A stretch of 34,931 nucleotides of DNA from Candidatus Hydrogenedentota bacterium (GTDB lineage Bacteria > JBFMHD01): the NCBI GenBank assembly GCA_040752395.1, contig JBFMHD010000004.1, positions 1 through 34,931 of the forward strand. The letters are read 5' to 3'. Shown here piece after piece: positions 1,256-34,826 of the stretch. The stretch's first letter is position 1, and each line of letters starts with the position of its first letter. The notes beneath the pieces are model-generated. The model searched no databases, was not told where the DNA came from, and was given only the letters and a program-made list of their open reading frames with translations. A program made the translations under genes and the position numbers.

Positions 1256-1326
1256 GAGTAGCTATGTTTTGAATGGCACAATGATATACTGCTCCCCATT
1301 AAGATGAGACACTTTAAAGGAGAGGA

Positions 1327-1573
1327 AAAGAGGCACAAAGGCACAAAGGATGGAAAACTAAAGATGATATGAAAAGAGCCGTGAGTCAAAACAGGACTCA
1401 GGACTCAAGACTCAAGACTTTTCAGCAGGCTCTGGGCTTTTGGCTCCAGCCGGCTGTAGTCCGTAGCCTGTAGCCTGTAGCCTGTCCTGATACCTCTCAC
1501 TTCTTCCGTTATCTTGCTTCTTGCTTCTTGCTTCTACTTGATATCATTAGAGTTACAGCGTTTTTCAGAGGAG
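1327..1573 (+). repeat. Modular heptamer-hairpin repeat, copy A
   Basis: aaaactaaagatgatat, (gactcaa)n, cagccggctg, (tagcctg)n and (cttcttg)n blocks shared with copies B, C, E, F. Confidence 0.95.
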
Positions 1574-1690
1574 AAAGTGTATATTTTCGCTTTTCGGTTC
1601 GATCGGTGAATAATCTTCTCTCGAGAGGATACATCGTATAAAATTTTATTACAATAAACTTAAAAAATTACCGAAATCTTAAATGATGGC

Positions 1691-1719
1691 TTGACAGCTA
1701 ATTAAAAAAAGTTTATAAA
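1691..1719 (+). promoter_or_regulatory. sigma70 promoter for transglycosylase operon
   Basis: TTGACA-17 nt-TATAAA. Confidence 0.65.
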
Positions 1720-1733
1720 AAACTGAACTTATC

Positions 1734-2046
1734 AACTTTTTCGAAGGAGTCGTCATGAGCGCGGTTTGCGCTCTACACTATTGGGTTATTGGGTTATTGC
1801 GTTTTTGCACTCTACACAAAGGATGAAAAACTAAAGATGATATAAAAAGAGTCGTGAGTCGCAAGTCGTGAGTCAAAACAGGACTCAAGACTCAAGACTC
1901 AAGACTTTTCAGCAGGCTTTTGGCTTTTTGCTCCAGCCGGCTGTAGTCCGTAGCCTGTAGCCTGTCCTGATACCTCTCACTTCTTCCGTTATCTTGCTTC
2001 TTGCTTCTACTTGATATTATTATAGTTACAAAGTTTTTCAGAGGAG
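1734..2046 (+). repeat. Modular heptamer-hairpin repeat, copy B
   Basis: Near-identical to copy A over about 220 nt, plus a 5' module gagcgcggtttgcgctc shared with E and F. Confidence 0.95.
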
Positions 2047-2053
2047 CAATTAT

Positions 2054-2728
2054 TTGAAAAAGATTATTCTTTTGTGCATTCTATCTTCATTTGTAGCTGA
2101 GGTTTGTTTTGCTGAAATTTATGCGTACAGGGATAGTAAAGGCAGAATTCATATAACTAATGTCCCGGTTGCAAATATAAAAACAACTCAACTCCAGCCC
2201 GGTGAAGCCCTTGAAAAAAAATCGAATATGAAAGATAGCAAAGAAAGTGATTATACTAAATACATATATCAATACAGTAAAACGTATAAAGTTGATCCGA
2301 ATATGGTTAGAGCCATTATTAAAGTGGAATCAAATTATAATCGCTGGGCTATATCTCATAAAGGAGCCAGGGGTTTAATGCAACTTATGCCCCAGACTGC
2401 AAAGGATATGGGTGTTAAAAACATTTTTCATCCTGCTGAAAATATTGAAGGTGGTGTAAAATATTTTAAAATGCTTCTTGATAAGTTTAACAATAACGTC
2501 TATCTTGCGCTTGCAGGATATAATGCAGGACCAGAAGCTGTAATTAAATATAATGGTATCCCGCGATACAGAGAAACGCAGAAATATGTAAGAGACGTTA
2601 TAAGTTATTATAAATTATATAAAAGCGAGAGTGCAGATTTAAGTAAATCAGGCAAAGTAACTACTTATAAAGATTCTAATGGTAGAATTCATTTAACTAA
2701 TATAGCAACCCATATAACAGAAGATTAA
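2054..2728 (+). CDS. Lytic transglycosylase (SLT domain), secreted
   Basis: Signal peptide; AIIKVESNYN, SHKGARGLMQLMP and ALAGYNAGP motifs. Confidence 0.92.
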   Translation: MKKIILLCILSSFVAEVCFAEIYAYRDSKGRIHITNVPVANIKTTQLQPGEALEKKSNMKDSKESDYTKYIYQYSKTYKVDPNMVRAIIKVESNYNRWAISHKGARGLMQLMPQTAKDMGVKNIFHPAENIEGGVKYFKMLLDKFNNNVYLALAGYNAGPEAVIKYNGIPRYRETQKYVRDVISYYKLYKSESADLSKSGKVTTYKDSNGRIHLTNIATHITED

Positions 2729-2733
2729 AGAAC

Positions 2734-3435
2734 GTGATTGTTTCAATCCACCAACCACATTATTTCCCATACCCGGGATTCTTTCATAAAATATTACAAA
2801 GCGATGCTTTTATTTTTTTGGACTCTGTTCAGTACGTTAAAAACGAATGGATTAATAGAAATGTATTAAAAGGACCAAATGGTAAAGTCTTTATAACGAT
2901 ACCTGTTCATTACAAATTTCCGCAGAAGATAAACGATGTTCTAATTGATAATAGAACGGAATGGATAAAAAAGCATATTAATACTATAAAGACTTGTTAT
3001 GGTAGAGCAAAGTATTTTAGTAAATATTTTGATATTTTAAAAGAATCATTAAATATAAACGAAACTAATTTATCTCTATTTCTAATAAAACACCTATTAA
3101 TTCTTTTTGAGAGATTGAATATTAAGATACCTTATTTTACAGCTTCGGACATAGGTGTTTATACTTTTAACCCTACACTTCGAATAATCGAATTGTGTAA
3201 AAATGTAGGCGGAGATATGTATCTTTCGGGACCCGCGGGTAAAGATTATCTTGAAGAAGATTTATTTAAAAAACATAATATAGAACTTATTTATCAAGAA
3301 TATAGCCCTGTAAAATATAACCAGAATTTTGAAAAATTAGGTTTTATCGAAAATTTATCTGTGATTGACCTGCTTATGAATACAGATGATACCATCATTA
3401 ACTCATATAAAGATAGGAGCTCCAGGATAAGATGA
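2734..3435 (+). CDS. WbqC-family protein
   Basis: IHQPHYFPYPGFFHKI...FLDSVQY...WINRN and NLSVIDLLMN. Confidence 0.9.
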   Translation: MIVSIHQPHYFPYPGFFHKILQSDAFIFLDSVQYVKNEWINRNVLKGPNGKVFITIPVHYKFPQKINDVLIDNRTEWIKKHINTIKTCYGRAKYFSKYFDILKESLNINETNLSLFLIKHLLILFERLNIKIPYFTASDIGVYTFNPTLRIIELCKNVGGDMYLSGPAGKDYLEEDLFKKHNIELIYQEYSPVKYNQNFEKLGFIENLSVIDLLMNTDDTIINSYKDRSSRIR

Positions 3436-4469
3436 TCCCGCATTCAAGACCATCAATAACAAAAAAAGAAAAAGATATAATAGCAAAAGTGCTAAAAACT
3501 AAAAATTTATCTCAATCAACGTATACTGAATTATTTGAAAAAAGATTATGTGAATATATCGGGTCTAACCATTCGATCGCGGTCTCATCAGGTACATCTG
3601 CTATATTTCTTTTACTTAAAGCTCTGGAATTAAAAAAGGGTGATAAGGTTATTATTCCCAATTATGTTTGTTCATCTGTTTATTATGCTGTTTTATGGGC
3701 TGGTTGTAGACCCGTAAGCTGCGAGGTAGATAGAAACGGCATAATTGATGAAGAAAAACTGAATGAATTAATTGATGATAAAACAGCTGCAATTATAGGT
3801 GTAAACCTTTTTGGCAAATTATTTACTTTGAGAAATAATTACAAAATACCGATTATTGATGATGCCGCACAATCAATAGGTGGATATGATAAGAGTGGTA
3901 AATCAGGTATCAGAACTGGTATGGGTATCTGCTCATTTTATGCAACAAAAGTAATAACCTCTCTCGGTAACGGTGGCGCGGTCTTTATTAATGATTCGTC
4001 ATTATATCAAAAAATTATTAATATGAGAAAAAATGACATTTCAAAAACTGATAAATTCGAGCATTTCCAATTAAGACTCTCTGATGTTAATGCAGGTTTC
4101 GGAATAATCCAGCTTAAAAGAATCAATGAACTTTTAAAAAGAAGAAGAAATATCTACAATTATTATGTAGCTGAATTAAAAAGATACGAGATTGAGTTGC
4201 CGATATTCAAAGCCAACGAGACAATATTCAGGTTCATTATAAAATTGAAAAAACCTGATAAATTTACCGATTTTATGTTAAAGCAAGGGGTTGAATGTAA
4301 AAGACCAGTAGCTTTACCTGTGCATAAAATTATGAATATTACTGAAAATAAATTCCCTGTCTCTAATGAATTATTAAAAAGTTCTGTTTCTATCCCTTTA
4401 TATCCTGATTTAAGAAGTAGCGAAATAGAATTTATTATAAAAAGTATAAAAAAATATTTTAATAAATAA
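3432..4469 (+). CDS. DegT/DnrJ/EryC1/StrS PLP-dependent sugar aminotransferase
   Basis: VSSGTSA, IIDDAAQSIG, SFYATK, SIPLYP motifs. Confidence 0.9.
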   Translation: MIPHSRPSITKKEKDIIAKVLKTKNLSQSTYTELFEKRLCEYIGSNHSIAVSSGTSAIFLLLKALELKKGDKVIIPNYVCSSVYYAVLWAGCRPVSCEVDRNGIIDEEKLNELIDDKTAAIIGVNLFGKLFTLRNNYKIPIIDDAAQSIGGYDKSGKSGIRTGMGICSFYATKVITSLGNGGAVFINDSSLYQKIINMRKNDISKTDKFEHFQLRLSDVNAGFGIIQLKRINELLKRRRNIYNYYVAELKRYEIELPIFKANETIFRFIIKLKKPDKFTDFMLKQGVECKRPVALPVHKIMNITENKFPVSNELLKSSVSIPLYPDLRSSEIEFIIKSIKKYFNK

Positions 4470-4480
4470 AGGTAAAAATC

Positions 4481-4509
4481 TTGACATTAAATAAATATAA
4501 TGTTAAAAT
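4481..4509 (+). promoter_or_regulatory. sigma70 promoter of nucleoside-salvage cluster
   Basis: TTGACA-17 nt-TAAAAT with TGn extension; favours the ATG at 4539 over 4512. Confidence 0.7.
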
Positions 4510-4538
4510 GAATGATTTTGGAATTTGGAACACAAAAG

Positions 4539-5360: not shown

Positions 5361-5427
5361 GTCATTAACTGAAGAGCTATCCATTGTGTTCTGCTACTTC
5401 TTACTTCTTACTTCTTCAGAGGGAGCT

Positions 5428-6744: not shown

Positions 6745-6749
6745 CTGCT

Positions 6750-8519
6750 ATGCAAATAAAGATTAAATCGGATAATTTTGATAAAAGCCTGATTAATGAC
6801 TTAAGTAAAAAATTTAATATCTCTCAACTCATAACAAAAATTATTTTATCACGTGGGCTTAAAACAGAAAAAGAAATCGATGAATTCTTAAACCAATCTA
6901 TCTCCAGGCTCCATAACCCCTTCTCTTTTAAAGATATGAAAAAAGCAGTTGATCGAATAAGAAATGCTATTCTTATGAAAGAAAAGATACTTATCTATGG
7001 AGACAGAGATGTTGATGGTATCTGCGCAGTTGTAATATTATTTACAATTCTAAAAGATTTAGGTGCAGAGGAGATTTATCATTATATCTCTGACTCTTGC
7101 GGATATGGGTTACATAAACATATTATAGATATATATATAAAAAAAGGTGTTTCTCTTATTATTACCACTGACTGCGGAATAAGAGACGTAGAAGCTGTTA
7201 ATTATGCTAATAGTTTTAATATCGATTGCATAATAACTGACCATCACGAACCAGCTGAAGTCTTACCTGAAGCATATGCTTTAATCTGTTCAAAAATAAA
7301 AGACGATACCTATCCAGACCATTCTATATGTGGGGCTACCATATCTTATAAATTAGCTCAAGCTTTGATAAAAAAAGAGACAGATGTAGTTTCTATTGAT
7401 AGATTGCCAGCTAAAACCGAGTTTATAAAATCGATACATAATAAAAATACGAAAATAATACAGGCAAAACTCAAGGATTTATTGATACTATCAGGTATAG
7501 CAACTATAGCAGATGTCGTACCGTTAATCGGTGAGAATAGAATTATCTCAAAATTTTGTCTCTCTAATATATGTGAGACTGAGATACCGGGATTACAGCT
7601 GATACTTAAGAAGTTGTTAAATAATAAAGATTATATTACTGTTCGGGATATAGCTTTTAAAATAGCACCGCTTTTAAACTCACCCGGTCGATTTGAAAAC
7701 TCGGAACTAACATTTAAACTTCTGACCTGTACCTCTACTGATGCTTTAGAATCTATCAAAAAAGTATTAAAATTTGATAAATTAAGAAAAGAGGTTACGC
7801 TTGAAAATTCTCTGATTATTAACAAATTATTAGAAGAGCAGGTTGATAAAGAGAACGACAATATTTTTCTTCTGATAGCTAATAAAATGCGGCATGGTGT
7901 AACAGGTATCGTTGCAAACCGTATATTAGCTGGGTATTCAAAACCAGTTATTATTTTAATTAATGATGGAAGAGAAATTATCGGTGCAGGTAGATCTAAT
8001 GAAGATGTTGATTTAATAGAAATTCTTAAGCAATGCCAGGATTGTCTTAAAAAATACGGCGGTCATTCACAAGCTGTTGGTCTGACTCTTAAAAGAGAAA
8101 AACTACAGGAATTTAAACGGAGAGTCAAGGAGATAGCAAAAAAATTAATACTAACTAAAAATTATTTAGATATTGATATGTGTTTAAACATTCAAGATAT
8201 CTCGTTTAAATTCGCAAGTGAACTCTCTTTACTTGAGCCTTTTGGTTGCGGAAACCCGGAACCTCTATTTCTACTTAAAGATATGAAGATATCTGAGGAT
8301 AAACAAGTAGGTAAAAATAAAGAACATATAAAGATTAAAGCCCAAGACAATCTCTCATCAATAAACATGGTCTATTTTAACGGTAAAGATAAATTTTATG
8401 AAACAATAGATAAATCAGCGAGATTTGATATAATAGTCAGACTCTATATCGATGAGTATCTTGGCATCAAAAGAGTAAACACCGTTATCGAAGAAATATA
8501 TCCATCAAATTCAAGATAA
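6750..8519 (+). CDS. recJ: ssDNA 5'-3' exonuclease RecJ
   Basis: IYGDRDVDG, TTDCG, ITDHH, TIADVVPL, GGHSQAVG, LEPFGCGNPEP. Confidence 0.93.
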   Translation: MQIKIKSDNFDKSLINDLSKKFNISQLITKIILSRGLKTEKEIDEFLNQSISRLHNPFSFKDMKKAVDRIRNAILMKEKILIYGDRDVDGICAVVILFTILKDLGAEEIYHYISDSCGYGLHKHIIDIYIKKGVSLIITTDCGIRDVEAVNYANSFNIDCIITDHHEPAEVLPEAYALICSKIKDDTYPDHSICGATISYKLAQALIKKETDVVSIDRLPAKTEFIKSIHNKNTKIIQAKLKDLLILSGIATIADVVPLIGENRIISKFCLSNICETEIPGLQLILKKLLNNKDYITVRDIAFKIAPLLNSPGRFENSELTFKLLTCTSTDALESIKKVLKFDKLRKEVTLENSLIINKLLEEQVDKENDNIFLLIANKMRHGVTGIVANRILAGYSKPVIILINDGREIIGAGRSNEDVDLIEILKQCQDCLKKYGGHSQAVGLTLKREKLQEFKRRVKEIAKKLILTKNYLDIDMCLNIQDISFKFASELSLLEPFGCGNPEPLFLLKDMKISEDKQVGKNKEHIKIKAQDNLSSINMVYFNGKDKFYETIDKSARFDIIVRLYIDEYLGIKRVNTVIEEIYPSNSR

Positions 8520-8879
8520 CAAAAGAAGCAAGAGGCAAGAGGTAAGATAACGGAAAGAAAGATAACGAAAGAGGCACAAAGGCACAACGTATGAAAAACT
8601 AAAGATGATATGAAAAGAGTCGTGAGTCAAAACAGGACTCAAGACTCAAGACTTTTCAGCTGGCTTTGGGCTTTTGGCTCCAGCCGGCTGTAGTCCGTAG
8701 CCTGTAGCCCGAATTATTAGAGTTACAGCGTTTTTCAGAGGATAGGAGTTAGGAGTTCGTAATAATAGATCCGAGCTCCGAGCTCCAAACTCCGAACTCC
8801 GAAGAAGTGGTGAGGGTCACAAGACCCGTAGCAGGCAAATAAATTTGCAATTTGCAATTTACAATGGAGCGAAGCGACC
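8512..8879 (+). repeat. Modular heptamer-hairpin repeat, copy C
   Basis: (gcaagag)n purine tract, core shared with A and B, extra (aggagtt)/(ctccgaa) hairpin, (tttgcaa)n, atggagcgaagcgac. Confidence 0.93.
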
Positions 8880-8882
8880 ATA

Positions 8883-10064
8883 ATGGATGATAACGAATTA
8901 AAGATTCATACAAAAACACCTGAGTTACTCCTCAAACTTGCCTCTAAATATAATCTTGATAATCTTAAAAAAATTGTTAATAACGACAATTCAATCCTTT
9001 TTAAAAAAGACATTTATATCTGCCTAAAAAATATTGTAGAAGCTTACGAAAGAGGTGGTAATATTTTTGAGAATCTAAAACAAGCGAAAAATATCTATAA
9101 TGTTAATATCTTTGCCATTAAAGGTAAAAATGATTATCTAATAAAGAATCTGCCTGATTTTGACAAGGCCATCCAGGAAATGAAAAAATACAGCAATTAT
9201 TTTAGACTCAACGCATATAGTATCGTTAACGCTTTTACAACTATCATAGAAGCTCAAATAACCGGTTTTGATTTAGAAAAATTTTTAAAAAAAGGTCGAA
9301 AACATTTAAAAGACTCAATAAAAGATGGATTAAAAACCAATCCTAACTGGAATAAAAAAACGCTTATAAATAAAAGACCGATTTTAATTATGCCTATCGG
9401 CGCTGCAGGCTGCGGTAAATCAACCCTCTATCGAGAATTATCTAATGTTATCAATATCTCCTGCGATAATATACGTTATCTTTTATTTAAAGATTTCGGA
9501 CCGAGTTTCAGTTCCTTTGAAAATTGTATCTCCTGGTGGATTGTTAACCAGCTTACAGATGAATACCTCAATAAAGGCTATAATGTATTTTATAATGGTG
9601 TTAATACTGATATCGAATACAGGTCCCCTTTAACAATGGAAGACCCTGACACATTATATGAGGGTATCCCATATCGTATTAAAATAGTCTATTTCGAGCC
9701 GTCTGTTAAACTTAATGCTGAGGAACTATCAGAATTAAAAAATATAAACCTGTGGAAAACACCGCTCAATGATATAGATATTAACTCTCTATCAATTAAC
9801 GTTGCCAAGATTATTAACCTGATTAAAATTAATTATAAAAGAACACTGGAAAGAACAGAAGAGATAGCTCAAGGTAAACAAGAACAGAACCCGTATGACG
9901 TTGTGTATGCAGTACCACCAGGTATTATTAAACTCTTTGTCGAACAATCTTTTGTGAAGCCAAAAGGACCTAATGTTATAACGATACCACGTAGAGAGAT
10001 ACAGAATGAAAAGCAAATGAAAGAATTCTATCATCGGTACGCAGAACAGATATTGAGTCAGTAA
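8883..10064 (+). CDS. P-loop NTPase, AAA_33/nucleotide-kinase-like, with unknown N-terminal domain
   Basis: LIMPIGAAGCGKST Walker A followed by ISCDNIR, typical of kinase-fold P-loops. Confidence 0.65.
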   Translation: MDDNELKIHTKTPELLLKLASKYNLDNLKKIVNNDNSILFKKDIYICLKNIVEAYERGGNIFENLKQAKNIYNVNIFAIKGKNDYLIKNLPDFDKAIQEMKKYSNYFRLNAYSIVNAFTTIIEAQITGFDLEKFLKKGRKHLKDSIKDGLKTNPNWNKKTLINKRPILIMPIGAAGCGKSTLYRELSNVINISCDNIRYLLFKDFGPSFSSFENCISWWIVNQLTDEYLNKGYNVFYNGVNTDIEYRSPLTMEDPDTLYEGIPYRIKIVYFEPSVKLNAEELSELKNINLWKTPLNDIDINSLSINVAKIINLIKINYKRTLERTEEIAQGKQEQNPYDVVYAVPPGIIKLFVEQSFVKPKGPNVITIPRREIQNEKQMKEFYHRYAEQILSQ

Positions 10065-10072
10065 GCCATCAA

Positions 10073-10145
10073 TTATCTTGCTTCTTGCTTCTTTCGTTAT
10101 CTTGCTTCTAACTAAAGGCACAAAGGGAGACAGGAGACAGGAGAG
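10073..10145 (+). repeat. Heptamer repeat module, copy D
   Basis: (cttcttg)n, ggcacaaa, (aggagac)n; 10076-10104 is the reverse complement of 8512-8540 at 27/29 nt. Confidence 0.88.
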
Positions 10146-10155
10146 GGTACGATTT

Positions 10156-11160: not shown

Positions 11161-11179
11161 AAATATCGACGAAAAATTA

Positions 11180-11208
11180 TTGACAAACAAAAAAAATCGA
11201 CATATAAA
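11180..11208 (+). promoter_or_regulatory. sigma70 promoter, probably giving a leaderless mRNA
   Basis: TTGACA-17 nt-TATAAA ending 5 nt before the ATG at 11214; no SD. Confidence 0.6.
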
Positions 11209-11213
11209 AGAGT

Positions 11214-12389
11214 ATGCTAATTAAAAGACAAGTGCAGTTACCTAAAAATAAAAATTTCTTTTTGTTCGGCCCTCGGCAGACCGGTAAAAGCACACTCTTG
11301 AAACATACTTTTTCAAATAAAAGACCTCTTTACTATGATATTTTAAAATCCGAGATATTTAGAAAATTAGCTGCTAATCCAGAAGTACTTCGAAGCGAGA
11401 TACAAGCTGTGATGCTGACTAAAAAAATTACTCATGTTATCATCGATGAAGTTCAGAAAATCCCGGGTATAATGGATGAATTGCAATCGCTTATTGATTC
11501 AAAAATACCATGCAACTTCATCATAAGCGGTTCCAGTCCGCGTAAATTGAAAAGAGCTCATGCAAATATGCTTGCGGGCCGGGCATGGACATTCCATTTA
11601 TACCCATTTACCTATTTTGAAATAAAAGATACATTTGAATTAAATCGTGTTCTTCAATTCGGTTCCATTCCACCTATATATTGTGCTTCTTCTGATACAG
11701 AGAGATATGAAATCCTTAACTCATATGTGGATACTTATATCAAAGAAGAAGTTGAGATAGAAGCCGATATAAGAAATATAGGTGGGTTCCTGCGTTTTTT
11801 ACCTATGGCTGCCTCTCAAAACGGTGAAGTACTTAATTTTTCAAATATAGCCCGTGAAACAGGAGTGAAATATAATTCAGTTAGAGAATATTATAAAATT
11901 CTGGAAGACACTTTAATAGGGTTTTATCTCCTGCCTTATGGAAGATCGATACGAAAAAAAATGACCCGACATCCAAAGTTTTATCTGTTTGATACAGGTA
12001 TTGTTAACGCATTGAATAAAAGATTACAAGTCACTTTGGAACAGAATAGTTATGAGTTTGGCAGGTTATTTGAGCAATTTCTCGTATGTGAAATAATCAG
12101 AATGAATAATTACAGACGTGCTGACTTTACTATCTCATTTTATCGGACAGAACGAGGGGTAGAAGTTGATTGCATTATCGAAACACCAAAAGGTAAAATT
12201 GTAGCGCTCGAAATCAAATCAACCCGAAATCCAGATACAACTCACTGTTCAGGCTTGATCTCTTTTAAGGAAAAGGTCAAAGAAGCAGAACTTATCCTCG
12301 CCTGTAGAATAGATATTCCAAGAAAATTAGATAAAGTATTAGCTTATCCCTGGGAGACTGCATTAGAATATATCTCAACCATTGATTAA
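11214..12389 (+). CDS. AAA_14 ATPase with DUF4143 and nuclease-like C-terminus
   Basis: GPRQTGKS, IIDEVQK, SGSS, PKFYLFDTG, EVDCII...LEIK. Confidence 0.9.
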   Translation: MLIKRQVQLPKNKNFFLFGPRQTGKSTLLKHTFSNKRPLYYDILKSEIFRKLAANPEVLRSEIQAVMLTKKITHVIIDEVQKIPGIMDELQSLIDSKIPCNFIISGSSPRKLKRAHANMLAGRAWTFHLYPFTYFEIKDTFELNRVLQFGSIPPIYCASSDTERYEILNSYVDTYIKEEVEIEADIRNIGGFLRFLPMAASQNGEVLNFSNIARETGVKYNSVREYYKILEDTLIGFYLLPYGRSIRKKMTRHPKFYLFDTGIVNALNKRLQVTLEQNSYEFGRLFEQFLVCEIIRMNNYRRADFTISFYRTERGVEVDCIIETPKGKIVALEIKSTRNPDTTHCSGLISFKEKVKEAELILACRIDIPRKLDKVLAYPWETALEYISTID

Positions 12390-12585
12390 TTTGTAATTTG
12401 TTAATTGGGAACGGTTATGATTTAGAAGTAAGAAGTATCAAATGTATTTATTGAATTAAAAAGAATGGCTGAATAGGAATAAATTTTGCTAAATTAACAC
12501 TATATTGTTTTGGTATTGATTATTTTTATTGAAATTATATACTATGTAAGTGTTAAAAAATCGACGTAAAAAAAGAAAAAGTGTT

Positions 12586-16854: not shown

Positions 16855-16867
16855 ACTGTAATCCCTG

Positions 16868-17095
16868 CTCCGAACTCCGAACTTTTTCGAAGGAGTACTC
16901 ATGAGCGCGGTTTGCGCTCTACACAATATATGAAAAACTAAAGATGATATAAAAAGAGTCGTGAGTCGCAAGTCGTGAGTCAAAACAGGACTCGAGACTC
17001 AAGACTCAAGACTTTTCAGCTGGCTCCGGGCTTCGGGCTCCAGCCGGCTGTAGCCCGTAGCCCGTAGCCTGAGTTTTACAATGGAGCAAAGCGAC
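16868..17095 (+). repeat. Modular heptamer-hairpin repeat, copy E (5' part)
   Basis: Matches copy B from ctttttcgaaggag to the (tagcccg)n tract; ends with the atggagcaaagcgac module. Confidence 0.95.
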
Positions 17096-17139
17096 AAGGG
17101 GCCACATAAGAGAAAATAGTAAGGAATGGTACACATTTA

Positions 17140-17454
17140 ATGAGATGGTTTAAGGATGTTTATAATCGACGGGTTCGATTGACGGATGAACGACAAGAAC
17201 ATCTTGAAATTGATCATCCTGAAATGGCAGGGCAAATTAATAAAATAGAAGAGACCTTGTTAAGTCCTGATCAGGTAGTCAAATCAAAAACAGATCCAAA
17301 TGTTGAATTATTTTATCGACGTTATGATATCACACCAGTCACTGAGAAGTATATATGTGTTATAATTAAGGTATCGATGGGAGACTTATTTATTATAACA
17401 GCATATTTCACGAATACAATAAAGACAGGAGAAATATTATGGAAAAAACAATAA
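17140..17454 (+). CDS. Putative BECR/RelE-like toxin (PBECR2/DUF4258-like)
   Basis: VRLTDERQEH..HPEM..IEETL..PD..ITAY; overlaps a DUF2283-like partner. Confidence 0.65.
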   Translation: MRWFKDVYNRRVRLTDERQEHLEIDHPEMAGQINKIEETLLSPDQVVKSKTDPNVELFYRRYDITPVTEKYICVIIKVSMGDLFIITAYFTNTIKTGEILWKKQ

Positions 17455-17642
17455 AAATTTGGTATGATCCAGAGGGCGATTATTTAGAGGTAATTTTTGA
17501 ACGGAAAACTGGTTACTTTAAAGAAACTGAAAATGATGCAATAATGGAAAAAGTCGATGGAGCAGGAAACATTATTGGTTTTTCCATTCTAAAATTGAGT
17601 ACACTCAAAGACCAGAAACCACTTTCAGTAAGTTTGCGATAA
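17439..17642 (+). CDS. DUF2283-family putative antitoxin
   Basis: IWYDPEGDYLEV..VDGAGNIIGFSIL; SD AGGAG. Confidence 0.8.
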   Translation: MEKTIKIWYDPEGDYLEVIFERKTGYFKETENDAIMEKVDGAGNIIGFSILKLSTLKDQKPLSVSLR

Positions 17643-17698
17643 AATGTCATGTCCAAATTATTAGACCCAAACTACGGAGACACACGACTTTTTTACTC

Positions 17699-17850
17699 TA
17701 GTCCGTAGTTGGTAGCCCGTCCTGATACCTCTCACTTCTTCCGTTATCTTGCTTCTTGCCTCTTGTTTCTACTTGAAATTATTAGAGTTACGAAGTTTTT
17801 CGAAGGAGTCGTCATAAGCGCGTTTGCGCTCTACACAACGTATGAAAAAC
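17699..17850 (+). repeat. Modular heptamer-hairpin repeat, copy F (3' part running into 5' module)
   Basis: tagtccgtag..gtcctgatacctctcacttcttccgttatcttgc.., then ttttcgaaggagtcgtcat..gcgctctacacaa. Confidence 0.93.
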
Positions 17851-17901
17851 AGGTTTTTTTCCTTACTTTTAACTTTTAACTTGTCAAAGGGAGATTCTAA
17901 A

Positions 17902-23900: not shown

Positions 23901-24531
23901 AGATGATGATTTACAAAACTACGGCATAAATACAGGAAATTGGAATGATTATGCACCAGCAGGCGCAGATACTACTGACCTCGTTTTTACTCTATATATA
24001 GGTTCAAGCCAATCAATCGCACGCATACCTAACGCCTCGGATACAGATGATAAAGCTAACTGGCAGATAGATTCTACACCAACACCTGGAGCATTAAACC
24101 AGATTACTGTGACTTATAATGTTTCTGGTTATGTTATACTTGAGGCTCGGGCTTATGGCTCTGATACAGGTTGTACTGTATGGGTTACAACAGGTTCTGA
24201 AACATATATCGCAACTACCAATGCTTATGGCACTTTCACCATAACAGGCGTACCTGCTAATACCTATACCTTATATGCAAAAGAATCTCATCATTTAAGA
24301 AGGATTAAACTCAATGTAGTTGTCAATTCTGATACAGACATAGGACTTGTCGGTACATTGCTCGCTGGTGATGCTAATAACGATAATTACATCAATTTAC
24401 TCGATGGTTCTATAATAAAGATTGGTATGAGTACAGGTTACAGAGCTGATGCTGATATAGATGGTGATAATGATAATGATCAGTCAGACTTGCAATGGGT
24501 GCGTAGAAACTTTGGTGACATAGGACAATAA
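17902..24531 (+). CDS. Giant secreted protein: cohesin-like, five lamin-tail domains, Ig/FN3-like repeats, dockerin-like (P2)
   Basis: SD GGGAG and signal peptide; ITLEVWVN..INGVEIHLSYDPAILQL; five LTD starts (LLISEI, PVISQV, LLITEV, ILITEI, VIINEV); GDANNDNYINLLD..ADIDGDNDNDQSD. Confidence 0.8.
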   Translation: MIKRTIFILGFLLLYPHLGYASTLRIVSPSDTDVFDTYGTIVDDSGMVDDYITLEVWVNALDTDINGVEIHLSYDPAILQLQDVGGDSFPADSPGIQIWEDHSQLGDILVNISSGDTIDYSSLTNADSIKLDVRVCTMLFKILSYTETTVIGWDFDEANNRVSRVTEADSGSNVLTAVDSGIITIQQNNTGDSHLLISEILYDGVGSPDEEYIEIYNPRNDTVILTNYYLSDAMDTYFSLPEDTPTVSSGDFIVRFPQSTFIAPRDTILIAINSSDFNTVYPGLHPDFEINQDGNSDNVSDMVIIESSGTISLSNTGEGVVMFYWNGVTDLVYDVDIVVFEDITYVPDKTGYSQDGPDIGTETSTYKTDDTSAYTLASNSATGQSQTRIDVNEDNETRLNGNGITGNDETTEKLSLSFNGTASPTPYHDDLIAYKTGDYSGYFTDGETSVEVLQFYLAPASFIDDTLVQLTLRNLGNMDDTDVDTVSLYIDADKSLTLSSPDTFLGYLTWNQGSSVWETTSASIYIPQSGETILVILDISDSVSNADTFRAQIDTWALRMTTSDSGPFVAITNANDLTAVVGQLLVSKNTDVPINYFIPGSTNITIASLYIRGSTSGDTLTKFTIRNIANLDTQYITAVKLYADADASYTYSAPDTFVALLLYDTFNLWFDTDTIQYPLAGAGSNFVVTIDVSISAIYERDSFVAQVVANECSGVIATPGPNTNVTNAYGQILVNPPGIATHPVISQVYPNDATGNNNGLFIELYNPTDTAVDISGWTIREDNNNLVFTIGNVTLQPGQYYLIGDRDYVTESDNSQWPAADTLTSTTIGWSVTNDGIYLADTTKRIIDAVGWGSPASSNNYESDPATAGNGVSIMRRSAYGATSTEMLIGGRRWVQGRGYDSFNNAYDFLSISDTTLIEPKNSSYRREFPDSWIVTVTKTADPGPATIYSNDTKVTVMAIGITGDTDNDNLTIFSVKNIGSADTQSISKVEVWKDNNLNNSWDSSDSFVAVLIYNASDTRWDTNTISFQFNGISDTFIVTVDATSTPDDNDTLQFSITVYTVDAIDAESGPAIAVTNNNYFSFSSLQPLQVSKNEEIDSSLVGRNDTNITVIAIRITSPVGPDTLTYFTILNLGNMDNGDVDTVTLWIDANSDSRWSSSDTFVANLSYTSPDTWSSVVDVYMSAGSMDFVVTISTSDTADFGDTFQAQIPINGCGASLADSGPLTTAVTSLGIITLDTYANISLLITEVIIDGNDAVEIYCLDDGNSGLGADISGWFINDMDGGVDKVIGDTDNNESKDTQVIIKTGEFLVIDGLTGTDESVAGPDGIISLHNAGNWVTDGDDQVVLYSPDTAIKDAVCFSTRGGSLASGEDNDMNTLFANNQWSPSYATENNCVNPINTSDFPADYSIARAWPPSDTANTRDEWSVDATPSTGAINTAENPITIPADVVMLDIADVPDDLGGNLIITWTPDTSYPDFDHYNIYVSTAAITDIRNSVIIPSSTQTDSSVGEYTASGLTNGDSYYAAVTIVDIYGHEDRVVTDTGPAAPIKNVVDTPIILITEIMAWNTGGYDTIELLVIYDGNPSGGLNLSGYRLYEDNYIKTFGNSTVHDSVYILVQLNVSATDDSDTSGDNILNVYSTEAGLTGTDESMFLFDPAGRIVDFVWWANRSGSVTSLEQSDIQMAIDSGAWKGLVRENNAVNPISGSSFPDSCSLTRRAGGAFDSDSYVDWVVDTTPTPGYASDVPEQAFTPPSPITNINAYDVILDQGSNILLKWDTVTISGFDHYNIYVSTAAFTNITNTDSVPFDTVDTYTQGWYRVYGLNPSLNYYFAVSAVNIYGAEDNNLSSTGPTSPIDNIPGTIKVIINEVAFNGGGGGFADDWIELFILDDGNNNQGCNLAGWYIGNNGHTSGSIFKAFGSNENASAIVDSGCYVLIHFNSSTIDEEDTMDGDADGVLEVYTTSSGLPGGGSTDDNLSLYGDSSAIEDFVCYGDTGTFSSGEDDDLQNYGINTGNWNDYAPAGADTTDLVFTLYIGSSQSIARIPNASDTDDKANWQIDSTPTPGALNQITVTYNVSGYVILEARAYGSDTGCTVWVTTGSETYIATTNAYGTFTITGVPANTYTLYAKESHHLRRIKLNVVVNSDTDIGLVGTLLAGDANNDNYINLLDGSIIKIGMSTGYRADADIDGDNDNDQSDLQWVRRNFGDIGQ

Positions 24532-24562
24532 GAGTCGTGAGTCGTGAGTCAATGGAAAGATA

Positions 24563-24823
24563 ATGAACATAACAAAGTTTGAAGAAATTAAAGCATGGCA
24601 GATAGCAAGAAATATAGTGAATACAATTTACAAAATAACTCACAGCTATCATTTTGATAAGGATTTTACTCTTCGTGAGCAAATAAGGCGTGCCGGCATA
24701 TCAGTTATGTCAAATATTGCAGAAGGTTTTGATCGTGGCAGCGACAAAGAATTCGTTCATTTCTTATTTATTGCCCGTGGATCTATATCAGAAATTAAAT
24801 CTCAAGACTCAAGACTCTTATAG
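24563..24823 (+). pseudogene. Four-helix-bundle (IVP/TIGR02436-like) protein, C-terminally truncated
   Basis: FEEIKAWQ..QIRRAGISVMSNIAEGF..FLFIARGS.SEIKSQ, then runs into a gactcaa tract and stops at 86 aa, without the last helix. Confidence 0.8.
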
Positions 24824-24828
24824 AATTT

Positions 24829-30800: not shown

Positions 30801-33009
30801 AAAACCTGATAAACCTGCTCTTATAACCCCAACTGCTGGTGAAAATACTTCTACTTTACAGATAAAATTTGATTGGCAGGATTGTATCGACTCTCATACA
30901 GGTGTCGGTACATACGTTATTTATATAGATACCTCACAATCGTTTTCTAACACTTATAAAATAATTGATACAATCACAATATCAGAAACCACTGTTACGT
31001 TAACATATGCTGATACCTATTACTGGGTGGTCTTTGCAATAGATAAAGTGGGTAATATAAGTGATACATCTAATACAGAATCTGTTGTTATACTTGGCGG
31101 TGTGAATTCATTCCTTGTTTATGCACCCTCGGTTGTAACAGTTGGCAGCAACTTTAATATTACTATAACAGCAAAAGATGTGCTTGGTAGCGTTATGACA
31201 AATTATAGCGGTACCGTGAATCTGATCATAACCGCAGGCACTATCTCACCGCAAACACTGACCGGATTTGTTAATGGTATAAAAACAGCTGCAGTATCAA
31301 TAAATACAACAGGAACAACAGTATTAACAGTTAATGATTCTGTAAACAACGATGCTTATGGTACAGTGTTAATATTAGTAAAAGCTGATACAGTATCAAG
31401 ATATATAGTCGACGCACCATCGCAGGTTAGCCGTGGCATAGGATTTAATTTAACAATAACAGCGATTGACCAGTTCGGTAACGTGGTTGATTACTATACA
31501 GGTACAGTAGCATTAAGTGCTGATGCATCGTTTACACCAGAAACAACACCCTGTTTTGTTAATGGTGTTATAACTCTTAGTGTAACCTTTACTCAGACAG
31601 GCGCTGGTATAACAATAACAGCAAACGATGGCACGCATACAGGTACGGATTATATAACTATAATCAATGGTATTGACAGATACGTTATATCCGCACCATC
31701 AACTGTAAGCTCAGGTCAAAGTTTTACTATCGATATCATTGCACGAGATGCTTTAAACAATGTCGTGAGCGGGTTTAATGATACAGTATCTTTTTTTGTA
31801 TCTTCAGGAATTGTATCACCAGCTTTCTCAGATAGTTTTACAAATGGTATCTTAATGAACCAGAATATGCAAATAACAGGCATCGGAAATATCACACTAA
31901 CAGCAACAGATAATACAGCTTATGGTACAGCTTTGATTGCTGTAGCATCTGTCCTGAGTATAGGCTCTGTTCAATCAGTTGATCTCTCTTTTAATGATTT
32001 AGGAAATACGCTGGCGGTTGAACTGAGACTTATAGATTCAAATGGTGATACAATGATTGTATTCCCATTTCCTGTTGCTTTGATTGTGCCAAGTCAGGAT
32101 CCGATATCAGGAAAGACAATAACTGATACCTATTATACCCAATTTACAGCAACAGGTACTGCAAGCGCTCAGATACCTGACTTGGGTTTTCCATTTGAGA
32201 TAACTGTTCTTCTTGATACTGTAAATGCTTTTAGAAACACAACACTTGACAGCGGCTCAAGAACCCTGAATCAAACAGATTATACAAGTGTGATAATACC
32301 CCAGGGCTCTTTAGGTGCAACAAATGTAAATAATGCAAAAATAATTATAAAAACAGAACCTGATACTACAATTCAGAACGATATAAGTGCTATAAACCAG
32401 TTGATAAATACAAACAGCCAATTAAAACTAATAGATTCTGCATTGCGTAATTTTACAATACTTGTAAATAATGTAGAATACAGCATATTTGATAACTATA
32501 TAACTATCCGGTTGCCATGGAGTGATACTAATCCAGAAGATGGTTATGTTGATAATGAGCAGTATGTTCATGAATCCACCTTAAGGGTATATCATTTTAA
32601 TGAAAATTCTAAATTATGGGACTTGGTACCAGATGCTACATTTGATTATGATGTGAATGTAGCGACAGTCAGGGTTAAAGAATTCTCTTCTTATATTTTA
32701 ATGGGTATACCCGGGCTCAATAATATCTCAGCTGTAACAAGCTACCCAAATCCATTCAGACCAAGACAGACGCCAAAAGTTGTGATAGATACTTTTACAA
32801 GAAATCATACCTATTTATTTGTGAGGATATACACAGTTACAGGTGATTTAGTGCGAGTCATTCAGGGGAATGACGTGGATTGCGCAAATGGTGTAGCGTA
32901 CTGGGATGGCTTAAATGGAAACAGAAAAGAAGTAGCACCAGGATTATATATCTATGTAGTAGAATCAAGCTTTGGCAAAGCAGTCGGTAAGATGACAGTG
33001 ATAAGATAG
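24829..33009 (+). CDS. Giant secreted protein: cohesin-like, 14 FN3/Ig-like YYWRV repeats, FlgD-Ig/T9SS-type C-terminal sorting domain (P3)
   Basis: Signal peptide; GDTFTLELWI..INGVAAYLLYE; 14 (D)TYYWRV..D..GN-type motifs; SYPNPF..IYTVTGDLVR..WDG..VAPGLYIY. Confidence 0.82.
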   Translation: MKRETWYKLFSILFLLVIGFFLVNDRDLEAVREIRIVAETDTAGANILDKWVRAGDTFTLELWIETDTNINGVAAYLLYEANKLNLIGTGFTKDTTIFGDTALLDTGFDYGGSSDTMIYAILTTADSLAMNSSARVCTLTLAATFNEDTGIIGFNLDYTNNKASMIASIYATDVLNSLDSGVIRIDATPPKDTFILISPIDGETRVQGSIQFVWQTTYDTGSGLSHWVLEYDTDLTDSFNPSLYRVYTSDSVCTYTPAINFTIGTWVWRAAAVDEVGNTSSWSLPETFVVILPTTPQVYIDSPTGYVPTNDTPFYVAGSTLNTQAGDTVRIRVNGIIQDTKILSIANDTFAFDTVSLSPGYDTIIVELIDSQGVVIDSDYVVVEYNDSVYVIIQIPVPSGFSYDTNYCTVTISGTAGDVENGDSIYLYRNNIIQNTYSLTGNSWSGTVTLSGLGDSIVVKVKDRFGNIDYDTITINYDTLASIEILSPINPDTRIDTVIISGTVADVLPGDTVWLYVNGVLTDSKVLTDTTWSCTAYLKGMGDSVVAKLTDRYGNIAWDTITLNLDTTPPTTVTLLSPPDATETRFTAITFIWVTSIDTQSGLFEHRLQVDTLGTFAYFIYDSSAGTGTSGILTLAANDTFYWRVLAIDDAGNTSVSNTRTILIDTIIPPKPTIISPANNTETRAQPVYFDWTDIIDTTSGLNRYHIQIEISGVVVVDSDVTTSDTSITLNEETYYWRVVAIDDAGNTSGYTDSSLVIIDRTAPVIWVVLIETSDSRYFTDSGGIDTTLLSDTVYFNNTGAGDGQRDTVQLTVSGADTVIFEEHFGDTTFYDTQTPYLYAYTIEIGYADTMMIIIARDNAGNEDSVTICWIRDITPPPPVSLVTPLDGQITGDTTPSFTWNQTTDTQSGTKVYLIEIATDNLFTNNIETSFIYTTSYTSSGLDSGTYYWRVIAYDTVSNYDTLSCETRTLRIDTSFPYITAITIISSVPSYFYDDTPIQPSILGDTVYFNPTYLGANQMNTITVYVYDDNEDTVTGSSAFIVIAGIDTGLNEDSYTLVYQIPQDTISQSITIVALDLLGYSDTVVVFFVKDTSPPLEPQRISPSSGVETNAVNITFSWTTSSDTGAGLSRYRLQIDTAGTFVNNLVDSYNGLLTSTSVLLPPNDTYYWRVIAIDLVSNTGAMLTDSVIIDTSFPDTPRLLLPILGYETNVVAITFRWDTACDSVSGLSGYRIQIDTSNTFASLKIDTYLGNRTDTTLSLIPNDTYYWRIIAIDDVGNTSVSSDSYLIIDTLSPTVPSLVSPASSLCTNAIAVTFDWDTSYDTGSGLSYYKIQIDTSGNFTTLIFDTQIITRTDTTLSLQPNDTYYWRIIAFDDVGNTSSSQTRFIIIDTQPPTTVTLLNPPDPTETTQTTINFTWTASADTISGLAGYYLQIDSSGNFISPDTSIFTISTTGTYTFTVYDTYYWRVLSIDTASNISISSTSTLIISVPDTAPPETPVLISPIGSTETNVIPVLFIWSDTAASEPDFDHYTIQIDTASNFINLVFSGDTNNSETSYILVYSDTYYWRVIAYDSSNNASTSTIGVFIFDRTAPNIPQLFSPSNGANTTTLVITFDWNDVYDTHSGLKNYVLYIDNDSGFAVPDFVDTETQSGTTITFGTADTYYWKVYAYDDLNNTSVSAVYSFAITTVDTQAPTAFTLTSPANGIETRILTITFSWQNSFDDTSPPVTYRLQIDTEPTFTDLLVDTYWLTETYTTYNFTGSDTLYWRVIARDNVGNTTVSTETRYLIVDTLAPAIPQLFSPINNAGTSVFIITFDWSDVSDSHSGFAFYVLYVDNDSTFASPTFVGTGTISGTTVSFGTSDTYYWKVYAYDDLNNTSVSIVETFSITITDTTPPSAFSLLIPSNGYITKNPLVVFTWWPSTDDTSPPVSYRVQIDTENTFNGLLLDTYWLSANNLNYTFSSSDTLYWRVIAKDNVGNTTPSNETWYLIVDITKPDKPALITPTAGENTSTLQIKFDWQDCIDSHTGVGTYVIYIDTSQSFSNTYKIIDTITISETTVTLTYADTYYWVVFAIDKVGNISDTSNTESVVILGGVNSFLVYAPSVVTVGSNFNITITAKDVLGSVMTNYSGTVNLIITAGTISPQTLTGFVNGIKTAAVSINTTGTTVLTVNDSVNNDAYGTVLILVKADTVSRYIVDAPSQVSRGIGFNLTITAIDQFGNVVDYYTGTVALSADASFTPETTPCFVNGVITLSVTFTQTGAGITITANDGTHTGTDYITIINGIDRYVISAPSTVSSGQSFTIDIIARDALNNVVSGFNDTVSFFVSSGIVSPAFSDSFTNGILMNQNMQITGIGNITLTATDNTAYGTALIAVASVLSIGSVQSVDLSFNDLGNTLAVELRLIDSNGDTMIVFPFPVALIVPSQDPISGKTITDTYYTQFTATGTASAQIPDLGFPFEITVLLDTVNAFRNTTLDSGSRTLNQTDYTSVIIPQGSLGATNVNNAKIIIKTEPDTTIQNDISAINQLINTNSQLKLIDSALRNFTILVNNVEYSIFDNYITIRLPWSDTNPEDGYVDNEQYVHESTLRVYHFNENSKLWDLVPDATFDYDVNVATVRVKEFSSYILMGIPGLNNISAVTSYPNPFRPRQTPKVVIDTFTRNHTYLFVRIYTVTGDLVRVIQGNDVDCANGVAYWDGLNGNRKEVAPGLYIYVVESSFGKAVGKMTVIR

Positions 33010-33013
33010 AATT

Positions 33014-33076
33014 AAGATAACGAAAGAAGCAAGAGGCAAGAGGCAAGATAACGGAAAAGAAAGATAACGAAAGAAG
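33014..33076 (+). repeat. Heptamer repeat module, copy H
   Basis: aagataacgaaagaagcaagaggcaagaggcaagataacgg, as at the start of copy C; inverse of the pyrimidine tracts in A, B, D, F. Confidence 0.88.
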
Positions 33077-33107
33077 TAAAAAATTGAAAAGATAAGGAAA
33101 AGAAAAA

Positions 33108-34532: not shown

Positions 34533-34728
34533 TACTAATTCAGGTTCATTCATAAAAAAAGTTGGTAAAAGAGCCTTGGAATAATAGTATAATTACAATA
34601 ATATAAAGAAAAAAGTCATCGTATTAGGCGAAGTGGCGCTTCGCCACGAAGCCTAACTGCGGGGCGAAGCCCCGCGTCCCGTTAAGCAAAATGTGAACGC
34701 CGAAGGCGTTCAAGCGAAGCGACATTTT

Positions 34729-34808: not shown

Positions 34809-34826
34809 GATGTTGGGCTTTCTTTC

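Follow-up and report, generated by a model that had tools for sequence, protein, structure and literature searches.

Period-7 intergenic mosaics with a polar GGAG end in a Hydrogenedentota genome, and the units they have in common with four-helix-bundle gene cassettes

Tandem heptamer arrays are common in some bacteria, where the review in the consulted part of PMC4679880 puts them down to slippage. Among the closest systems, as described in the accessible parts of their sources, the TAACTGA repeats of Beggiatoaceae are intergenic, gene-oriented, of period 7 and variable in steps of 7 (PMC4679880); the period-7 intergenic GGGAATC repeat of Xanthomonas has a single unit type (PMC4692102); and the P6b hairpin of the Nostoc tRNA-Leu intron is a hairpin of degenerate heptamers (PMC3488679). 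All are mirror pairs or hairpins of degenerate heptamers. The Coxiella 23S rRNA intervening sequence (IVS) carries an ORF of the S23p/PF05635 family, with complementary ends and a variable run of heptamers before the start codon (PMC4990558, in part). Such four-helix-bundle genes are merely listed in the portions consulted of PMC5524665 and PMC8700078. Apart from the single unit type, these traits recur in the DNA described here.

The window is the whole stretch that was analysed: 34,931 nucleotides of a Candidatus Hydrogenedentota bacterium (assembly GCA_040752395.1, contig JBFMHD010000004.1, positions 1 to 34,931, forward strand). The initial annotation described at least seven repeat loci, A to F and H, and all seven of these are present; the window also holds locus I, a weak locus J and an armed gene, G (24532-24817):

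1283..1573 (+): locus A; an end that we take to be IS-like (1283-1319), 8-mer tract, mini-ORF module, hairpin 1 (1371-1424), hairpin 2 (1425-1484), pyrimidine arm and tail; GGAG at 1570-1573, with no host start codon after it.
1737..2046 (+): locus B, a near-complete main path; internal GGAG (1746-1749), GTAG-tagged REP-like hairpin (1757-1778; tag on the - strand), 8-mer tract, mini-ORFs, hairpin 1 (1844-1911), hairpin 2 (1912-1964), pyrimidine arm and tail; terminal GGAG 7 nt upstream of the TTG (2054) of a lytic transglycosylase gene.
5389..5425 (+): locus I; (TACTTCT)n arm, then a short tail whose terminal GGAG lies 2 nt upstream of ATG 5428 (pyrimidine-nucleoside phosphorylase).
8512..8878 (+): locus C; purine arm over the recJ stop codon, 8-mer tract, hairpins 1 and 2, tail into hairpin 3 (8744-8803), small hairpin (8812-8827) and AATTTGC tract; next ATG at 8883.
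10070..10144 (+): locus D; pyrimidine arm, 8-mer unit and GGAGACA tract; adenosine deaminase gene downstream (ATG 10156).
12386..12434 (+): locus J; weak, degenerate heptamer tracts downstream of an AAA/DUF4143 gene; no further copies by blastn.
16866..17095 (+): locus E; hairpin-3 right arm, internal GGAG, REP-like hairpin, mini-ORFs, hairpin 1 (16951-17018) and the best-paired hairpin 2 (17019-17071).
17140..17642 (+): two small genes between E and F, a PBECR2-like nuclease (below the Pfam cut-off) and DUF2283.
17699..17882 (+): locus F; hairpin-2 right arm resumed, pyrimidine arm and tail, GGAG at 17805-17808, then a second REP-like module and an ACTTTTA tract.
24532..24550 (+): left arm of the cassette, (GAGTCGT)n, directly after the upstream stop codon; its unit is the hairpin-1 left-arm unit.
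24563..24823 (+): four-helix-bundle gene (TIGR02436 / PF05635), 86 aa.
24801..24821 (+): right arm of the cassette, (GACTCAA)n, the hairpin-1 right-arm unit; its outer 9 bases pair with 24528-24536.
33005..33080 (+): locus H; purine arm (AGAAGCA/AGAGGCA) beginning at the upstream stop codon.

At 17140..17642, between loci E and F, the main path is interrupted within the hairpin-2 right arm, and the two small genes appear to have been inserted into it. Pyrimidine units complementary to the purine arm of locus H lie at 33218-33236, inside the beginning of the next gene. A consensus scan of positions 1000-2200 gave no + strand promoter-like site within A or B, and blastn of locus B against plasmids and phages returned only repeat matches of 28-31 nt.

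Genome-wide, exact tandem runs number 1132 at period 7 and 404 at period 8, as against 26-82 at periods 3-6 and 9-13. Gene cores make up 71% of the genome, though they hold only 53 of 1130 period-7 arrays. The core hairpin has about 220 copies, and non-repetitive linkers are common to hundreds of loci. The annotated change of length in whole heptamers is confirmed (in 132 of 133 copies the length spanned by hairpin 1 divides evenly by 7), as is conservation of period without conservation of sequence. The tract ggttatt had been taken for a heptamer; it and ggcacaaa form 8-mer tracts. Six pairs plus one mismatch per unit correctly describes hairpin 3, the hairpin-2 form of copy E and, in hairpin 1, the inner unit, but not the common hairpin-2 form (about 5/7, with G-U) or the outer hairpin-1 units, which are often 3x3 loops. 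Fold z-scores are -6.3 for copy E and -3.5 for copy B, with a median of -4.4 over 40 copies. Rfam covariance models gave no match in the window at E <= 1 and none in 10 loci at gathering score. A generic gene-less GAGTC/GACTC hairpin occurs 227 times here and in only 3 of 400 other genomes (1-4 matches each), where reversed-pattern controls gave 1 and 4 matches in two genomes.

The polar GGAG end is the strongest feature of the family and is absent from the initial annotation. GGAG terminates 351 of 545 elements; conservation falls from 0.95 to 0.48 one base past it (312 rows), and to the right of GGAG sharing is near the shuffled level, duplicated contig ends aside. A start codon follows within 16 nt in 199 of 322 tails (background 80/328). 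Two copies terminate on the first four bases of tRNA genes (2/4 tRNAs that start with GGAG against 0/39 others, p = 0.007, two events in all), so the junction GGAG looks like the target's own sequence. Such junctions tell mechanism apart from selection: GGAG is joined at sites with and without use by a ribosome, and a repeat donating ribosome-binding sites may therefore be the wrong reading. The GGAG-to-ATG spacer is shorter at docked than at native genes (n = 172 vs 336, p = 2e-7), a difference not predicted by pure docking. At the other end, 24 of 31 junctions between the start module and unique DNA fall at GGAG, and only nine units have GGAG on both sides. The absence of terminal repeats with target duplication, as first reported, stands: the shared repeat averages 4.39 nt against 4.26 nt permuted (n = 180), and general target duplication is rejected.

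The modules are ordered and not, as first described, shuffled: 457 paths among the 545 elements fit a funnel-shaped polar graph, in which the path returns from tail to start module 46 times. Orientations are mixed in only 6 of 392 multi-module loci; with these and six hairpin-2 centres as the only cases, frequent inversion or palindrome correction is rejected. Elements lie 145:5 in favour of the transcribed strand, a bias beyond the availability of targets (123:22, p = 0.0004).

Among 215 copies, 67 of 74 site pairs have all four gametes, near linkage equilibrium, and mean r2 falls from 0.149 at <20 nt to 0.015 at 50-100 nt; contig overlaps peak at 127 nt (k = 127), so linkage over <127 nt is supported by reads. 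The mean number of partners declines with distance upstream of GGAG (179 at 20 nt, 40 at 100 nt, 0.6 at 300 nt), and of 446 stretches covering the last 120 nt, 442 are distinct. The number of units in the left arm shows no correlation with that in the right (rho -0.02, n = 135; -0.04, n = 112), double-sided changes in core columns are never seen among copies, and swapping arms between hairpins leaves folding as good as in the real ones (-21.56 swapped vs -21.57 real; -24.43 vs -24.25 kcal/mol). An element recognised by its structure had been proposed; these three results leave selection on structure among this genome's copies unsupported, and compensatory changes between arms, the test set beforehand for that proposal, are nil within the family. 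Near linkage equilibrium together with non-covarying arms is what short-patch recombination would give, and does not suit a master element that is copied. Of the spreading mechanism first suggested, spread without a recognisable transposase holds, but a dedicated mechanism finds no support, the linkage pattern fitting patchwise recombination. With near-free recombination among ~200 dispersed copies in ribosomal and ATP-synthase operons, concerted evolution of bacterial leaders is seen here with unusual clarity.

The four-helix-bundle gene in the window matches its family at E 1.5e-24 and 3.6e-26 and is truncated, with about 35 C-terminal residues lost where the frame enters the right arm. Its cassette is flanked by two protein genes and is not within an rRNA helix, excision by RNase III being a trait of the 23S IVS. 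The genome has five such genes (three broken, two intact) and >1000 repeat loci. Complementary periodic arms flank four of the five, the fifth stopping at a contig edge, and three of the four arm-bearing cassettes are built from top-ranked units of the family; the unit of the C146 cassette shows no spread, with 8 occurrences. Gene-less hairpins with cassette units exceed the genes about 40-fold. The suspected association with four-helix-bundle genes is upheld, cassette arms and hairpin 1 having units in common. Across bacteria, period 7 is the best period upstream of the PF05635-type gene in 64 of 107 loci and in 1 of 107 control genes, and a cassette's own downstream arm ranks first in 19/28 and 19/29 loci against 4/107 controls. 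The structural claim accordingly survives between cassette arms across bacteria but not among the copies in this genome. AGARG arms lie upstream of 24 of 79 relatives of the C347 gene and 0 of 29 relatives of the window gene, so the AGARG type of arm moves together with its gene. Arms of the strict GAGTC pattern are on both sides of 0 of 29 window-gene relatives, with related cores by eye in about five. Against a 132-locus cassette panel, the top 25 units gave 5 exact matches (shuffled mean 1.65, maximum 6) and 15 with <=1 mismatch (shuffled mean 13.3). An origin of all modules from cassette arms is unsupported, most units being untraceable to arms in that panel.

No report was found of PF05635 genes tied to inverted heptamer arms outside rRNA, or of repeat docking on GGAG, in literature covered thinly for subscription journals. 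The window joins two old puzzles, namely why 7-base repeats are over-represented in bacteria and what the PF05635 family does, and filled and empty forms with the same units lie 7 kb apart, leaving the link open to experimental testing.

The explanation that we favour, at a little better than an even chance, is that the elements are genome-specific intergenic mosaics, grown and homogenised by short-patch copying between the genome's own loci under guidance of homology or microhomology, and not by transposition of a fixed unit. Some blocks would be inverted 7-/8-mer arms of four-helix-bundle cassettes, the units being observed in both and the direction presumed; gene loss would leave a closed hairpin such as hairpin 1, and other blocks would be captured pieces (the GTAG-tagged REP-like hairpin, the IS-like end, old gene starts). 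Units are gained or lost as whole repeats and independently in the two arms, as the counts show and as slippage predicts. Copies would trade patches with crossovers every few tens of bases, a pattern seen in the linkage data, by an enzyme that can only be presumed. The downstream junction is seen at GGAG, apparently the target's own, mostly a Shine-Dalgarno site and also tRNA starts and untranslated sites, and the upstream one is ragged or again GGAG. Template switching or recombination may carry the tail to new genes, anchored at one end by existing arm homology and at the other by a 2-7 base GGAG match, and selection would purge gene-breaking and antisense copies. Effects on mRNA (operon hairpins, predicted anti-Shine-Dalgarno pairing, mini-ORFs) are probably tolerated by-products. 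MutS is encoded, and the ComEC-family matches in the genome are in keeping with this explanation. Weighing against it are the strand bias in excess of target availability, the short spacers at docked genes, the many units untraceable to cassette arms, the lack of strict GAGTC arms around relatives of the window gene, the unspread C146 unit, a tRNA contrast of two events and an assembly that may lack a mobilising gene.

The genome has no relative below domain level, the element was matched in 0 of 30 other genomes, and a search of metagenomes with the exact core pattern gave a single match, in an unrelated coding region, so empty sites cannot be set against filled ones.

It is also conceivable, though unlikely, that the four-helix-bundle protein acts in trans as an Avd-like pentamer that binds 7-periodic arms (ssDNA or RNA) and promotes annealing and transfer, with gene-bearing cassettes autonomous and the mosaics non-autonomous passengers aimed at GGAG. 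The protein matches the bAvd profile (E 3.6e-11) and the five-chain PDB entries 2RLD and 2GSC; Avd is a positively charged pentamer, and an RNA stem-loop is touched by all five protomers, according to the consulted part of its report (10.1101/2023.10.23.563531). The covariation of arms around the gene, the two intact genes and the density of period-7 arrays (39.7 per 100 kb here, against 4.6 in samples from 20 genomes that have the gene and 0.8 in samples from 20 that lack it) favour it as well. A catalytic partner is, however, neither known nor found, the few gene copies contrast with the number of repeat loci, structure is not conserved among copies, and gene-rich genomes mostly have few arrays in the sampled stretches, 8 of 17 arrays coming from one region. 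As a speculative extension, PF05635 proteins might be strand-transfer factors of a transposase-free mobile system whose substrate is a 7-periodic imperfect duplex rather than a sequence, with emptied arms joining GGAG, possibly by pyrimidine-arm pairing with the target. If so, this genome would be a runaway non-autonomous form that recasts the translation-start context of about one-tenth of its genes; heptamers as the commonest long simple repeats in bacteria would be explained, and a widespread protein family would gain a function.

A tetranucleotide fixed end, a variable other end and no target duplication resemble one-ended rolling-circle transposition or target-primed reverse transcription. 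That the family is a non-autonomous element of a lost or unassembled HUH (Y1/Y2) transposase or reverse transcriptase is nevertheless improbable. The fixed and ragged ends (spread 30-400 nt), the GTAG-tagged hairpin module (295 tag matches, 6-bp stem), tail-to-start cycling, the GGAG-bracketed units, a 34-residue Y2 transposase remnant and better folding of the sense strand in 67 of 77 copies are in its favour, but the REP-like hairpin lies away from the fixed end, and linkage equilibrium without identical copies speaks against bursts from master copies. Profile searches of the assembly gave no RVT_1, Y1 transposase, TnpB, rve or RecT, rve being the DDE family that was covered; RAYT (Y1, PF01797) had 0 matches, its control being positive in 6 of 14 genomes. 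The assembly is 94% complete and 215 of 698 contig ends lie within repeats, so a mobilising gene could be missing. IS110 is rejected as mobiliser, the single copy having no DNA in common with the family. Three tyrosine-recombinase matches and a GIY-YIG match in a 617-aa frame show no link to the family, and the genome has no GxxExxY genes. PF00078 (reverse transcriptase) had 0 matches, whereas a diversity-generating retroelement has such an enzyme beside Avd. Of terminal inverted repeats (15-30 bp), general target-site duplication and a cognate transposase sharing ends, as in MITEs, none was found; the inverted repeats are internal, between a fixed and a ragged end. One module alone has the form of a GTAG REP palindrome (20-40 bp, GTAG tag).

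Selected post-transcriptional control, with a leader common to many genes that makes translation uniform, gates it or directs the processing of mRNA (e.g. by RNase III), is a rather poor prospect. The tail lies ahead of the start codon in 238 of 2176 genes (about 1/9), including ribosomal-protein, EF-Ts and ATP-synthase operons, and folding predictions place docked GGAG in pairs (probability of being unpaired 0.18 vs 0.44, with a control unmatched for Shine-Dalgarno strength). RNase III is encoded and, in the consulted text on Coxiella, cleaves the IVS at its first heptamer (PMC4990558); a translational role was proposed by MacGregor for TAACTGA repeats, as given in part of PMC4679880. Against this, docking of the tail extends to tRNA starts, to the trailer of a tRNA in antisense and to sites ahead of promoters, almost every copy differs, and copies do not covary.

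That slippage acting separately locus by locus, or a few repeats chimerically assembled, made an apparent family has very little chance: heptamer arrays elsewhere are ascribed to slippage and the assembly is fragmented at repeats, but the shared linkers, the k = 127 overlaps and gene order kept across elements (S8-L6-L18-S5, S2-EF-Ts, ATP synthase a-c and gamma-beta, S6-SSB-S18) largely refute it, and chimeric assembly is rejected.

Among known dispersed repeats, compared here through the available parts of the sources, Neisseria REP2 and Borrelia IR-A/IR-B (Delihas 2011, PMC3184786) likewise have no terminal inverted repeats, carry two internal stem-loops and lie directly upstream of genes with a ribosome-binding-site end. 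REP2 comprises 23-26 copies of 120-150 bp with promoter and ATG included (PMC3184786), whereas this family comprises hundreds of variable 7/8-mer mosaics in which ATG and spacer are unshared and tRNA genes are also joined. Mycobacterial MIRU also lie within polycistronic operons, with mini-ORFs overlapping their neighbours, but are fixed units with 4-bp direct repeats on both sides; Neisseria NIME, compared by description, form recombination-linked mosaic arrays as here (both via PMC3184786). REP/BIME with RAYT (Di Nocera 2013, PMC3733652) have a GTAG-tagged 6-bp hairpin module and mosaic intergenic clusters in common with this family, in which the REP-like piece is one internal module, doublets are direct and the bulk is tandem heptamers. 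TAACTGA repeats are mostly without a Shine-Dalgarno site (PMC4679880), and in the sections consulted TAACTGA, GGGAATC and P6b have single unit types, with no tie to PF05635, ordered multi-module paths or a GGAG junction. In comparison with the Coxiella IVS, the cassette here stands between protein genes, its gene is truncated, and gene-less hairpins are by far the commoner form.

Period-7 repeats pervade the host genome. The seven repeat loci claimed in the window by the initial annotation are all present, together with three further ones. The host assembly (2.84 Mb, 35% GC, 349 contigs, 94% complete, the window being one contig) holds 1132 exact period-7 arrays, against 26-82 at periods 3-6 and 9-13; period 8 contributes 404. 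The core of hairpin 1, built from (GAGTCGT)n left and (GACTCAA)n right units, occurs 218 times, and a k-mer mask marks 1123 repeat loci covering 141 kb, a total that includes some unrelated repeats. Period-7 arrays reach 39.7 per 100 kb in the host, compared with 4.6 in samples from 20 genomes that carry four-helix-bundle genes and 0.8 in 20 genomes without a match. Only one sampled region is as dense as the host genome (L164, G026:C38:100000-119999, eight arrays in 20 kb), and it is a candidate second case. Among the genomes compared, none is related to the host below domain level. The search of Rfam for a known family gave nothing relevant; plasmid and phage searches likewise.

Free shuffling of modules, as first proposed, did not hold up. 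Modules lie along a directed path: a start module with a GTAG-tagged hairpin, an 8-mer tract, mini-ORFs, hairpin 1, hairpin 2, a pyrimidine arm, the tail and finally GGAG. Entries are many and the main exit is single (351 of 545 polar elements end at the GGAG exit, over 457 distinct paths). At the start of this path the window has a mini-ORF chain (1755-1845 and 16901-16952), whose first two members overlap by ATGA. At 1283-1319, and at 16 loci in all, the mosaic is fused to one end of a short IS-like element, whose two-ended form occurs in the host genome at G000:C79:11375-11461. A PBECR2-like and DUF2283 gene pair (window 17071-17699) breaks the path within the hairpin-2 arm, which suggests that mosaics can take in cargo. 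At 33108-33250 and in about a dozen other genes, in-frame translation of pyrimidine heptamer arrays gives hydrophobic stretches at the N-terminus (CFLLLAS, SYFLLL); these resemble signal-peptide cores, with 14 candidates, a few doubtful.

The GGAG seems to be part of the target and not of the mosaic. A single base beyond GGAG, conservation has dropped from 0.95 to 0.48, and what follows on the right is common to copies at barely more than the chance level (257 tails, duplicated contig ends excluded). Two elements terminate on bases 1-4 of tRNA genes, one tRNA-Ser and one tRNA-Tyr; tails sit on 2/4 GGAG-starting tRNA genes versus 0/39 others (p = 0.007; 43 tRNA calls, two of which look questionable). 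In a third case the junction is with an antisense GGAG lying behind a tRNA-Arg gene. About ten host tRNA genes have repeat modules within a few bases downstream. Likewise, in 24 of 31 cases GGAG is where the start module meets unique DNA. The reported lack of target duplication stands as a general rule, despite nine units with GGAG on both sides.

Copies recombine with one another. Nearly all are unique: 442/446 are distinct over their final 120 nt, and no two share an identical end longer than 126 nt. All four allele combinations occur in 67 of 74 site pairs with enough data (215 copies), although recurrent slippage may contribute at repeat sites, and r2 decays within ~20 nt. The hairpins themselves are real by folding, with the sense strand more stable in 67/77 copies; the proposed recognition of their structure fared worse, since pairing shows no sign of copy-by-copy maintenance. 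Left and right arm lengths are uncorrelated, two-sided changes are never seen at core pairs, and arm-swapped hairpins fold as well as real ones.

A suspected association with four-helix-bundle paralogues is supported, in the window by one gene:

24563-24823, truncated TIGR02436/PF05635 gene; its arms are both units of hairpin 1

Complementary arms flank four of the five such genes in the host, and every one of the four has a unit of its own. Three of the units rank among the family's most frequent, and the fourth has not spread. Elsewhere, period 7 was the best period upstream at 64 and downstream at 56 of 107 loci (7/2140 in shuffles; two of 109 loci were excluded because their flanks were short or their matches partial, and the 79 relatives of one host gene are mutually non-independent). 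The inverted-alignment score has a median of 51.5 for own arm pairs, while cross pairs average 27.5, and with unrelated genomes the own partner arm ranked first at 19/28 loci versus 4/107 control genes. For one gene the arm type is closely tied to protein subfamily; for the window gene the tie is loose. Most other module units could be traced to no cassette arm. At L154 (in genome G267) and L126, a close relative (58%) of the window gene has similar arms, and 8.5 kb away from it stands a GAGTC/GACTC hairpin that encloses no gene.

On balance, the family probably derives from emptied cassettes. Its building blocks would be arms that lost their gene, plus captured fragments; the arms would lengthen through slippage, and patchwise recombination would spread the blocks, with GGAG as the usual downstream crossover. 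For the enzymology of the spread, which we infer, existing models can be invoked (template switching, one-ended transposition and target-primed reverse transcription). That the four-helix-bundle protein is instead a dedicated transfer factor is possible but doubtful; the intact host proteins do show matches to bAvd and to two structures of five chains each. An HUH transposase or reverse transcriptase, now lost, is unlikely, and a leader regulon under selection slightly less likely still. The host retains a Y2 remnant of 34 residues; no cognate transposase is evident, as first noted, with Y1 transposase, TnpB, rve, RVT_1, RecT and GxxExxY all unmatched in the 94%-complete assembly. It does carry RNase III, MutS and ComEC families, one IS110 unrelated to the family and three tyrosine recombinases. 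One tyrosine-recombinase match (G000:C304:1196-1747, minus strand) has an internal stop and resembles an integron integrase remnant.

Between co-directional genes, tails lie on the coding strand in 145 cases and the opposite in 5. A start codon follows within 16 nt in 199 of 322 tails, against a background of 80/328. Of the rest, 61 continue into a further module, 4 are cut off at a contig end, and 58 show neither a start codon nor a following module. Tails precede 238 of 2176 genes (gene counts are approximate, as a simple ORF caller supplied them). Upstream, the elements have a ragged edge, which in 54/160 falls no more than 15 nt from the stop codon of the preceding gene. Against pure docking, in which the mosaic end joins a GGAG already in the target, spacers are shorter at docked than at native genes and strand bias exceeds target availability, which means that selection, or a step involving RNA, is at work as well. 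Artefact or independent slippage is very improbable: chimeric assembly is ruled out because elements of 80-320 bp sit within conserved operons with gene order intact and contig overlaps peak at 127 nt.

The window otherwise carries housekeeping genes, toxin-antitoxin pairs and three very large secreted proteins (PLD-like plus lamin-tail domains; lamin-tail plus Fn3; Ig-like repeats) that, with a following PorV-family gene, occupy 12550-33009 in a genome alone in its lineage. An RHH and ParE/RelE-type pair (146-656) precedes a GC-rich stretch (715-800); the latter was suspected as an attC site and folds no better than shuffles. Stacked long hairpins (34648-34812 and 34824-34931, minus strand; z about -6) lie immediately beyond a HicA-like ORF (Pfam E 9e-4, short of the cut-off), and by eye we take them to look like integron attC sites.

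For intergenic heptamer repeats, comparison is offered by the available parts of PMC4679880 (citing Mrazek 2007), PMC4692102 and PMC3488679; PF05635-type genes are listed in those of PMC5524665 and PMC8700078, and Avd is compared from that of 10.1101/2023.10.23.563531. By the criteria applied, the host mosaic qualifies as neither a MITE nor a DGR. As far as the accessible descriptions go, the cassette is not an IVS but is like the rRNA intervening sequences (PMC4990558), and the mosaic, while not a REP-RAYT member, is like BIMEs (PMC3733652) and NIMEs (PMC3184786) in its mosaic build. Although it falls outside REP2/Borrelia IR as the available portion of PMC3184786 presents it, the mosaic is alike in position.
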